Made by a program: the position numbers. Of a stretch of 64,000 bases of DNA, positions 48,001 through 51,000 are shown one piece after another. Position 1 is the first letter of the stretch; each line of letters starts with the position of its first letter. Source of the DNA: Escherichia coli. GTDB taxonomy: Bacteria > Pseudomonadota > Gammaproteobacteria > Enterobacterales > Enterobacteriaceae. The stretch is taken from assembly GCF_030013595.1 (NCBI RefSeq), contig NZ_CP122768.1. One strand, 5' to 3'.

Positions 48001-51000
48001 ACTAATTAACCTAAATTATTTATTGAACACGAAAACAATGAAGGCCCCACCTCACCTCAGACTAAAGCCGACAATATCCTGAGTAACACTCTATCCAATA
48101 GTAAATAGTGGTTACACCAGTTATATTTACTGACTGACCTGTACCAGAGTTTTCTAATACAACGCTGACATGGTAAAGACATTAGTCTCCTCCGCAAGTA
48201 GCAGAGGAGACTATATGTACTCAACGATTAAGTCGTTCAGAGGTCAAAGTTAGGTGCGACACACAACGTTTTTCCCTCAATAACCGGTACAACTCTGTTT
48301 TGTTCATACAGTAAATCCAGTAACCAGTTGATTTTATCCTTTTTCCGGAAACGGTTCGGACCACGCTGTAAAATGTCATTTTTTTTCATACAGAGGATCC
48401 CCTTCTCAATACAATAGCTTTTTATCCAGTTGAAAAGTTCAAGCTCCTCTGGAATGAGTCGCACAGGTACGGTCAGGGCAGAGTTGTCAAAAGTTAACGG
48501 ATTAGACAACCGCACATACTCATTACCGTACCATATTGCTAATTCTCTCGCCATTTCTGCAGTGTAAGGGGAAATCTCCCCCTCTTCACCGCTCGAATGG
48601 TAAATAAGTCCTGCCAGTCTTGCCATATACTCTGCATTTTTAGCAGCATATTCCCGGCAATGTCTTAAAGGCCCCAATCCCCCCAGCTTCGATTCCACAT
48701 CATTGTAATAATCCGTCCAGATTCTGGCAGCCTGAGGAGAAAAGTGAAGGCAACGTCGTTCACCACTCATCGCCAGACTTTCATCAATAAGCTCATTGAT
48801 CCTCTCTTCAAACAAATCCTGATACTGTGATGAATAATTATCTCCGGTTATTATCCTTGTCCCCTGCGTTGATGTTGGTTGACACATCAAAAACCTTGCA
48901 TGATGTCCTGACGTTTTCACAATTTCTTTTTTTCGCGTACAAAAACCTTTGTGGTAAACATCAGGCTGAATCATCACCGATATCGTCAGTCTTGGCTCCT
49001 TCAAATTAATTCCGGGAGATGATTTCCTGTCGATGAAAAGAGAACCTCCATCCCACAAAGTGTTAATAATTCCCAGTTTACTCATGGCCCGGCTGTCAAA
49101 AATTACCCCCCTTCACTGGATACAAGAGCAAAAGAGCGATTGCTATCGGAGTAATATTTTAACATTCCCTCTATCGTTGTCTCATTAAAAATTGTTCGAC
49201 GTATCTGCGGCGGAACAGGAGGTTTATTCAGATGCGTTTCAAGCTCTGATTCTGTTGCCTTGTAATCTTTACCGGCACGAATCTCTTTATGAAATTTTGA
49301 TTCCAGCGCTTTTTGTTTTTGCTCCCATATTTCCTTTTCTGTACTGTAATTCTCAACCAGTTTCGCGTATTCATCCGCCAGGGCTTCATCCCTGAGATAA
49401 AATGCTTTCATAAACACTTTATCCACGGTCGTTTTCCTTTCACCGGAATCAGCCAGAATCAGAGAGTAAAGATTAACAGGCCCATGTAAATTTCCAGGTC
49501 TGCACACGTCAATCTGATTCTGACAGGCAATTGAGATCGCTGTTAATGCGGATGTTGCCACCATAGCCAAAGGTGCCTGTGTATTTTTTTGAGTTTCAAT
49601 TATTGCATTTCTCACCAGCGGTGGTAGTGCATATATCGGATAAGGATTTTCTGGTGCAAGTAAGCACATAAAAGCCTCTCTTTTCATTAATGGGTTAGTA
49701 AAATAGCAGCAAATCCCGCTACAATAGCGAAAATAGCTGCTATTCAGACCTGATGCTCTGAGAAATACAGAGCATTTGTAGATCTGATGTTTAATAAACC
49801 GATAAGGTTAATTCAGTGAAGACTGTATTATTCACCACGAAATATCATTCATATTTCTCATTCTTAATACCTCCGGAAATTATTTCACTAATACCTTTCC
49901 CCCGGTCTTTTCCCTTTCTCGAGAACCATAGTGTAAATATTAACGGCCCCACGTAAATTTCCGGGACTGCATACGTCAACCTGATTCTGACAGGCAATTG
50001 ACATCGCTGTTAATACTGACATTGCAACCAGAGTCAGAGGTACTTGTTTATTGTATTGAGCTTTAATTATTGCCTTCCCTATCATTGATGGTCATGCATA
50101 TACTGAATACGACATATCCGGTTTGATGTAAGGCATAAATGCTTCCTTTTTCGTAATACGTTTCGGTTATAGCAGCAATTACCGCTACAATAGCGACAAT
50201 AGCTGCTCTTTCAACAATGAATGCTGGAAATTCTGTTTATCAATTAAACTTCTGGCTAAATTGTTCTTATGCTTCTTTTTCCTCCTGAGGTGATCACGTG
50301 ATGACAAAAACTTATCTGCTCATGGTCATATCTGAAGAAAGCGTATGTCTCACTTCGTCATTAACACCTTTGACTGCTGATCTGGCAGGTACAGTATGTA
50401 AAGTAAGCCATTCGTCAATAGCTGATGAACGCCAGCCCACAGAACCACTACCAAGACGTACCGGCCTGGGGAAGGTTGCATCGTAGTATTTCGATAACGG
50501 ATTCATTTTTTCGTAAATTGTCGAACGAGATATACCTAACAATTGGCTCAGTTCAGGCATCCGTAAGATGCGTGAAGGAGTCCTGCAGTGTCCGGATTGA
50601 TCTGGCATTTTATCCCCCATAGTGTGGTGAACTGTCGTTACAGTTTGTATTCCCCGGGTAAATTTGTCTGCGTAAAAAAATGGGTTGAGAAAAAAGACAA
50701 TAAATAATTAAAAATCAATATGATAGAAAACGACAGCATTAGTGTTATTTTACTTTTCCCTTATCGCTGTCGATTCTCATTATCATTCATGGCAAAAAAA
50801 CAGCAAAAGAGGCCCTGGTAATGACTCCTGTCAGTAGTACATGTGTTTTCGATAAATGAACCAATGGCTTTTCGTGAATTTCCAGGGAGCGTAAAAAGCA
50901 AATCGTTTTCCGGGCAGGTCGTTTGATGTGAGTACGAAGTGTCAGATTGTTGCGCTCAATGCGCCGGGTAAATATCTTGCCGACAAGATGCTTATCCTGT

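Follow-up and report, generated by a model that had tools for sequence, protein, structure and literature searches.

We examined a nested palindrome that occurs twice beside a yfjI-like helicase gene in a 64,000-nucleotide stretch of Escherichia coli DNA (contig NZ_CP122768.1 of assembly GCF_030013595.1; hereafter the window). The palindrome belongs to an apparently undescribed, widespread family of DNA elements whose stem sequence is conserved, whose linkers covary, and which is linked to homologues of yfjI. Our leading interpretation of these sequence comparisons, held tentatively, is that the palindrome is a cis-acting site of an island replication module, most likely the origin or loading site that the YfjI helicase would use after the island is excised. 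Such a role appears more likely than the two proposed in an earlier note on this DNA, an operator for the adjacent AlpA-like regulator or a structured leader.

Conservation and covariation of the palindrome family

Both palindromes were found where the earlier note had placed them. Each copy holds a nested palindrome of 43 nt, copy A at 49702-49744 (plus strand AATAGCAGCAAATCCCGCTACAATAGCGAAAATAGCTGCTATT; sense strand AATAGCAGCTATTTTCGCTATTGTAGCGGGATTTGCTGCTATT) and copy B at 50168-50210 (plus strand TATAGCAGCAATTACCGCTACAATAGCGACAATAGCTGCTCTT; sense strand AAGAGCAGCTATTGTCGCTATTGTAGCGGTAATTGCTGCTATA), with the sense strand being the minus strand of the window. No further palindrome of this kind occurs in the 64 kb. 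Both copies lie downstream of the AlpA-like gene, and ~32 nt separate each from its annotated start codon (ATG at 49669 for copy A and at 50136 for copy B). The distance of ~15 bp to the start codon given earlier is correct only for an upstream in-frame ATG at 49687.

The family consensus is CTGCTATT-NNN-GCTA-loop(3-6 nt)-TAGC-NNN-AATAGCAG. Each arm consists of two direct GCTA(TT) repeats with a 9-bp period, and the arms are inverted around a centre of 3-6 nt that has no fixed sequence. Three loci (L203, L205, and L215) have three repeats per arm. We assigned membership with the pattern GCTATT-N3-GCTA-loop(2-6)-TAGC-N2-3-AATAGC, allowing up to three mismatches. Copy A has two mismatches and copy B one, all within one outer repeat: the right outer repeat has degenerated to ATTTGC in copy A, which has an additional outer stem (AATAGCAGC/GCTGCTATT), and carries a single change, AATTGC, in copy B. 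Besides matching the pattern, both copies occupy an intergenic site in an alpA-yfjI module and have complementary linkers, TTC/GGG in copy A (one C-G pair and two T.G pairs) and GTC/GGT in copy B (Watson-Crick and wobble pairs). Versions with the pattern intact are present in the close E. coli relatives L003, L005, L175, and L214.

Both copies were predicted to fold far better than shuffled sequences. As RNA, copy A folds with -26.7 kcal/mol (z -4.7) and copy B with -20.3 kcal/mol (z -2.3). As DNA, the copies gave z scores of -4.9 to -5.7 on both strands, and none of 200 shuffles folded equally well. We also considered whether the GCT-ATT-rich frame encodes a small peptide (IAAIFAIVAGFAAILLTH) and rejected this, as the frame has no start codon and close relatives differ by 1-nt indels.

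We assessed conservation with a search that was seeded by an alignment of YfjI proteins, made no use of the motif, and took one genome per species. The best-conserved block of the otherwise diverged alpA-yfjI spacer was TGCTATTTCyGCyATTAATAGCGGAATAGC, in K-12 as well as in eleven other species of Enterobacterales; the YfjI proteins of these species are only ~40% identical to that of the window. In the K-12 island CP4-57, the related block between alpA and yfjI is TGCTATTTCCGCCATTAATAGCGGAATAGC, and the K-12 YfjI is 41% identical to the window type. Approximately nine further loci, from Shewanella, Pseudomonas, Rugamonas, Rhodoferax, and uncultured Gamma- and Betaproteobacteria, carry clear relatives of the palindrome, with YfjI proteins that are 25-38% identical. 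The earlier note had described the palindrome as conserved and had named its absence upstream of homologous yfjI genes as the result that would count against this. Since it is present there as the best-conserved part of the spacer, conservation as a functional element is supported.

Metagenome contigs were scanned with the DNA pattern alone (20 fixed bases and no gene information); at least 120 matching stretches were returned, 67 of which carry a YfjI homologue. For the 32 matches with at least 3 kb of sequence on both sides, a YfjI homologue lay within 4 kb in 22, and 19 of these had an AlpA-like gene as well. A first pattern scan of viral contigs was less productive: 5 of 53 matches were real (L096, L112, L119, L131, and L132), with the rest mostly arising by chance in Ala-Ile-rich coding DNA.

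The linkers, which vary in sequence across the family, remain complementary. Watson-Crick pairs occupy 73% of linker cells, and at least 11 complementary triplet types occur (CCT/AGG, TCC/GGA, TCT/AGA, TTT/AAA, GCT/AGC, TTC/GAA, CCC/GGG, GTT/AAC, CCG/CGG, CGT/ACG, and ACT/AGT). In a 40-sequence alignment, the covariation score was 0.278, compared to 0.128 +/- 0.011 for shuffles, with none of 500 shuffles scoring as high, and the score at the true register was two to three times that at every slid register. Wobble pairs in the sense strand (22 G.T, 14 A.C) revealed no clear strand bias. A conserved stem, covarying linkers, and a free loop would fit a structure that is recognised by sequence and can form a hairpin on either strand.

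We also detected a sister family, ATGCGA-TTC-ATGCGA-loop-TCGCAT-GAA-TCGCAT, which has the same 2+2 architecture built from another hexamer and lies downstream of yfjI. It was found in three loci of Oxalobacteraceae/Burkholderiales type (L045, 4175-4219; L068, 3948-3982; L083, 3217-3250). The YfjI proteins of these loci share GP(V/I)RP in the winged-helix region, while many other YfjI proteins, from loci with or without the GCTATT motif, have GPNxLR. Literature searches with motif strings and with yfjI, DUF3987, and AlpA as topics did not return a description of the element (coverage was incomplete, making this absence of evidence only), and the motif-string matches were all to unrelated primers.

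Two other sets of palindromes were noted. Members of the GCTATT family (e.g., TATAGCTATTCCCGCTACTAATAGCGGGAATAGCTATA) lie at the far end of CP4-like islands (L154, 12692-12721; L230; L161, 292-320; L251), where they adjoin DUF932, RadC, and antitoxin-like open reading frames (ORFs) and proA, with no yfjI within 4 kb. These may represent a second class of site or be left over from an adjacent island. Islands of Pectobacterium and Dickeya (L009, 2066-2104; L010, 2021-2059) carry a perfect palindrome with 18-bp arms (ACCTCTTACTAAGAGCTTATTAAGCTCTTAGTAAGAGGT) upstream of the helix-turn-helix (HTH) gene. It looks like a classical operator at the promoter of that same gene and is a different element from the yfjI palindrome.

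Candidate functions of the palindrome

The case for a replication origin rests on the linkage to yfjI, the single copy per island, the free position of the site, its iteron-like structure, the use of a different hexamer in another YfjI clade, and the example of phage-inducible chromosomal islands (PICIs). Each element consists of two to three hexamers per arm with a 9-bp period, and there is one site per island, mostly adjoining yfjI; CP4-57 of K-12 has one site and no further copy. The position of the site relative to the genes varies. Among the 52 distinct sites whose stretch also encodes YfjI, 11 sit 7-55 nt upstream of yfjI, ~15 are upstream of alpA, 16 are 60-330 nt downstream of yfjI, and ~10 are farther away. 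Six or seven of the 14 downstream sites with a callable neighbour lie between convergent genes, as in L076 and L023. In PICI satellites, the origin consists of iterons directly beside the replication gene (PMC6092414).

What is known of the protein is consistent with a replicative role. The YfjI homologues are without exception DUF3987 proteins, many of them with a fused Toprim, PrimPol, or PriCT domain. Experiments on a DUF3987 protein demonstrated 5'-3' helicase activity and binding to its primase-polymerase (PMC11724360), and the DUF3987 gene of PICMI satellites is needed for replication (PMC10803314). In the AlphaFold model of YfjI (mean pLDDT 90.6), a flexible linker leads to a C-terminal domain of three helices with a beta-hairpin, an arrangement that we interpret as a winged helix. 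The closest Foldseek matches to the whole model were MCM helicases (E ~1e-4 to 1e-5; TM score 0.3-0.4), a statistically clear but loose similarity, and YfjI is predicted to be MCM-like. A sequence search of the PDB with a YfjI profile found no solved relative.

A model that accommodates these features is that the palindrome presents four to six protein-binding repeats, which YfjI would recognise through its C-terminal winged helix or through a partner protein. The two-fold symmetry would place two helicase rings head to head, and extrusion of a hairpin on either strand (a cruciform), or melting, would open the DNA to the primase.

Several observations weigh against an origin. Of the 32 metagenome matches with complete context, two (L141 and L208) have an AlpA-like and a Gp2-like gene but no YfjI, and eight have no module gene at all, although several of the eight, with the A/T-only type of linker, may be unrelated to the family. 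L016 and L017 encode closer relatives of YfjI yet lack the motif, and the C-terminal winged-helix sequences of YfjI do not split cleanly between loci with and without it. In the Enterobacterales loci, the site is always between alpA and yfjI, 30-55 nt before the start codon, which also suits regulation. Since the metagenome set was chosen with the GCTATT and GCTA blocks fixed, only its linker and flank columns are informative, and the symmetric covariation of the linkers could alternatively reflect a protein that co-evolves with its half-sites, or self-correction of the palindrome. The surroundings also lack other marks of an origin. AT content within 50 nt on either side is only ~6% above the locus average (59 loci), giving no clear AT-rich unwinding element, and we found no second iteron cluster. 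Flank analysis revealed no shared 7-mer and a weak AT excess; K-12-type loci have upstream T-rich tracts that the window type lacks. In small Psychrobacter plasmids, the DUF3987 gene is accompanied by RepM, and these plasmids therefore do not offer a clean case.

Foremost among the alternatives, though unlikely, is an operator through which either the AlpA-like regulator or YfjI itself, binding at the yfjI promoter, controls yfjI and the genes that follow. The invariant Enterobacterales position would be expected of such a site, as would the ~15 other sites upstream of alpA, and a fair sigma-70 match, TTGAAA-16-TATTGT, overlaps copy B. Autorepression of replication initiators at inverted repeats related to their iterons is frequent, so an operator could coexist with an origin. 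However, the HTH gene upstream of yfjI belongs to one of two families, K-12 AlpA-like (as in the window) or the 75-aa type of L004, that are ~27% identical, and both palindrome subtypes occur with both families, in all four combinations. The site thus does not track the type of AlpA. L016 makes the converse point, as its AlpA is 63% identical to that of K-12 but a different palindrome occupies the same place. The 16 sites downstream of yfjI, about half of which (where the neighbour could be called) lie between convergent genes and so have no promoter, are also difficult to reconcile with an operator, and a centre of 3-6 nt is awkward for a dimeric one. No acceptable -35/-10 pair overlaps the site in K-12-type loci; a promoter with its -10 element in the palindrome centre was plausible in copy B only and was rejected, as it is not kept in those loci. 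Published work on AlpA points both ways: the E. coli PICI EcCICFT073 encodes an AlpA that activates its own promoter (PMC6092414), while in PICMI satellites, AlpA expression left satellite gene expression unchanged and the protein is excisionase-like, with models resembling TorI (PMC10803314). Together, the sharing of the palindrome across two HTH families and the promoterless sites between convergent genes led us not to favour an AlpA operator. yfjI has also been listed among the earlier reported targets of YbaO/DecR (PMC6237786), with no position given relative to the palindrome. A set of excisionase sites was rejected, since no other GCTATT cluster was present near int or the island ends, either in the 64-kb window or within 2.5 kb on either side in 17 loci.

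Two further proposals concern the hairpin itself. We regard it as quite unlikely that the palindrome is the nick site or binding hairpin of the YagK/YfjJ (Gp2-like) protein, serving as a rolling-circle or transfer origin. HUH enzymes typically act on hairpins, and the Gp2-like proteins have an HUH-like motif (LHIHFV in the window, HYHLIL in K-12) as well as a YxxK motif (YLAK and YMTK, respectively). The K-12-type centre, CATTAATAGCGGAA, resembles what we take to be the nick region of f1 gene II, CTTTAATAGTGGAC. A Gp2-like gene was detected in 18 of 80 YfjI-seeded loci, 16 of which have the motif, and L141 and L208 pair the palindrome with Gp2 and AlpA but lack YfjI. Nonetheless, no Gp2-like gene could be detected within 4 kb in 10 of 24 context-complete island loci, and L076 and L023 have none nearby; the loop and immediate flanks, the usual places for a nick, are the variable parts of the element; and the Pfam match of the proteins, to REP_ORF2-G2P, is weak (E = 8e-4). 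Less probable still is an RNA element, with the hairpin acting in the alpA-yfjI transcript as an attenuator, terminator, or processing or stability signal. The predicted RNA hairpins are stable, above all that of copy A, which is followed by UAUUUUAC and was picked up by a terminator scan. In about a quarter of the family, an A-run precedes the stem and a T-run follows it, as in a bidirectional terminator, and K-12 yfjI is reported to lie behind one of the strongest Rho-dependent terminators measured in vivo, with no position given relative to the palindrome (PMC9160355). But a terminator has no need of the stem sequence that is kept across classes of Proteobacteria; most members, including copy B and the K-12 type, have no U-tract; the palindrome is near-perfect on both strands, with only a slight excess of G.T over A.C; and its position relative to the genes varies. 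An Rfam 15 scan of 44-56 kb (E <= 1) found no match near the palindrome (49-51 kb). We therefore do not favour the structured leader that had been suggested. That the palindrome does something else altogether is improbable, ranking between the operator and the nick site. A replication origin, despite the points against it, remains our preferred explanation.

The duplication and the surrounding island

The window contains the palindrome twice as part of a larger direct repeat of ~290 bp with roughly 77% identity between copies. Positions 49455-49655 and 49922-50122 are 77% identical, and 49671-49744 and 50137-50210 are 74% identical. A MAFFT alignment extended the similarity across ~330 columns, beginning exactly at the palindrome, and so bears out the ~330-bp repeat of 75-80% identity that had been noted. 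Unit A (49410-49744, minus strand) comprises the palindrome, the ribosome-binding region, and the first ~85 codons of yfjI; unit B (49880-50210, minus strand) has a palindrome and ribosome-binding region of its own, followed by the dead 5' remnant of a diverged yfjI.

Thus, the yfjI-like 5' end is indeed present twice, although neither copy heads an intact gene. Copy A precedes the start of the full-length yfjI, itself split by a frameshift. The fragment behind copy B begins at the ATG at 50136, contains an in-frame stop, and retains YfjI homology until ~49906 (~78 codons), with 57% amino acid identity to intact YfjI; it is a pseudogene fragment. The earlier description of a duplicated promoter holds for the duplication, while a promoter is unproven, as only copy B has a fair sigma-70 match. 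With yfjI behind copy A frameshifted and copy B orphaned on a gene stump, the replication module in the window is probably inactive.

Since the copies are only 77% identical and the DNA upstream of copy A shows a faint likeness to the 3' end of the HTH gene of L004, the repeat looks less like a recent tandem duplication than like a recombination scar that would have joined two diverged, related islands. A perfect 8-bp hairpin that copy B lacks, ATGCTCTG-TATTTCT-CAGAGCAT (49753-49775, minus strand), lies immediately upstream of copy A. In L004 (3487-3502) and L003 (3151-3166), a LexA-box-like sequence, CTGTTTGTATTTTCAG (CTG-N10-CAG), comes right after the stop codon of the 75-aa HTH gene; at the homologous place in the window (49753-49777), it is replaced by the 8-bp hairpin, with the wrong spacing for LexA.

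For the genes, we used the annotation of an E. coli record that is 99.9% identical to the window, with coordinates as in the window. The genes of the yfjI region are encoded on the minus strand. Directly upstream of copy B is the AlpA-family HTH gene (50312-50620, minus strand), whose product is 52% identical to K-12 AlpA across 61 aa. The yfjI-like gene, encoding the DUF3987 helicase (48237-49669, minus strand), is broken by its frameshift into ORFs at 49103-49687 and 48237-49085, and a 65-aa "DUF3987" fragment is annotated between it and the HTH gene. Next comes the gene for the YagK/YfjJ ("inovirus-type Gp2") protein (46853-47416, minus strand), with its HUH-like LHIHFV and YxxK motif YLAK; this protein is a possible nickase partner for the replication module. 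The last of these genes (44338-46722, minus strand) encodes a 794-aa fusion of an archaeo-eukaryotic primase-polymerase domain to a superfamily 2 (SF2) helicase domain. The primase part matches a CRISPR-associated PrimPol family with 83.6 bits, under the family cut-off, and the helicase part is similar to XPB/RadD. RefSeq names the protein a "TOTE conflict system" primase, a term for which a literature search found no paper. It may be a member of the replication module or defence cargo.

On the other side of the HTH gene are an IS1 remnant, a hypothetical ORF of 605 aa (51720-53537, plus strand) with no NCBIfam match, and the integrase gene (53724-54926). L003 and L004 have hypothetical ORFs of 540-545 aa in the same slot, on the opposite strand to the HTH gene, a likeness of position. 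Just past the integrase gene, at 55085-55410, two direct repeats of ~60 bp (CCCCTCACCGCCATATT...GAGCTTTTTTTTCGCAT) bracket a match to the RtT RNA family that, with 48.5 bits, exceeds the gathering score, and are followed by two type I-F CRISPR repeats (CRISPR-DR4; 50.1 and 29.7 bits). ARAGORN detected no tRNA in 54-57 kb; the island attachment site is thus not an obvious tRNA gene here. The duplicated arrangement is common: at least 80% of its 1.7-kb region is present in 1029 E. coli records. E. coli 99E2750 (L004) has an unduplicated layout, in which the HTH gene is followed by 95 bp and then yfjI.

Comparison with known systems and implications

The architecture recalls viral core origins. 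Site II of SV40 large T consists of four GAGGC pentamers, and papillomavirus E1 sites are likewise palindromic core origins. As in those origins, four short repeats are arranged as two inverted pairs, head-to-head rings are possible, and the recognition domain is separate from the ATPase. The proteins are unrelated, with SF3 helicases there and a predicted MCM-like AAA+ protein here, and the repeats of the present element are spaced by 9 bp. Linker covariation and a variable centre suggest hairpin extrusion, which is outside the SV40 model.

Another comparison is with phage P4, in which the winged-helix domain of the alpha primase-helicase binds the iterons of ori and crr, direct octamers (TGTTCACC type) in two separated regions. 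P4 and the islands studied here share a P4-type integrase, an AlpA/Vis-like gene before a replicative helicase that ends in a winged helix, and a short-repeat origin (a candidate one here). In contrast to the two repeat regions of P4, we find a single palindrome, and alpha is not a DUF3987 protein. The RSF1010 sites ssiA and ssiB and the hairpins of HUH Rep proteins are also sequence-specific hairpins that can form on either strand near replication genes, and an AEP-type (archaeo-eukaryotic) primase and an HUH-like protein are encoded nearby in our case. In those hairpins the loop or flanking single-stranded nucleotides are conserved and serve in priming or nicking, whereas here the stem is conserved and the loop and flanks vary.

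The likeness to the Pseudomonas aeruginosa AlpA antiterminator, with its AlpA-binding element and terminator tB, is limited to the name and to the layout of alpA followed by a hairpin. The P. aeruginosa protein is numbered past residue 140 and has eight helices in a Q-like fold (PMC9371919), while the E. coli-type proteins, set apart by their descriptions, have 70-102 aa. The P. aeruginosa element, GGGACG-N5-GGTA, is located between -35 and -10, and the window site has no counterpart to it. As the protein is large and Q-like and the DNA element unrelated, we rejected this antiterminator as a model.

The pri-rep-ori module of PICIs, including the Staphylococcus aureus pathogenicity islands (SaPIs), shares several features with our loci: a satellite-type island, int, an AlpA-type gene, a primase/helicase gene, and an iteron site beside the replication gene (PMC6092414). 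PICI origins contain two sets of iterons that flank an AT-rich stretch, 3' of rep (PMC6092414). The element described here differs in being one compact, hairpin-capable palindrome of 30-45 bp without an AT-rich spacer, in its variable position, and in its association with a DUF3987/YfjI helicase.

Islands with int, an AlpA-type gene, and a DUF3987 gene are among the commonest integrated elements in Proteobacteria and include satellites and carriers of defence and virulence genes. As no origin of the YfjI type has been mapped in the searchable literature, the palindrome provides a concrete candidate site. More speculatively, and with somewhat less confidence than we place in the origin itself, we propose that the GCTATT palindrome and its sister ATGCGA family could be the missing origin of such islands and satellites (CP4-57-like and PICMI-like), on which an MCM-like helicase would assemble as two opposed rings over a cruciform-forming array of four to six repeats. 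If true, this would be a compact origin logic not previously described in bacteria. The palindrome could also be used to mark such islands in genome annotation.

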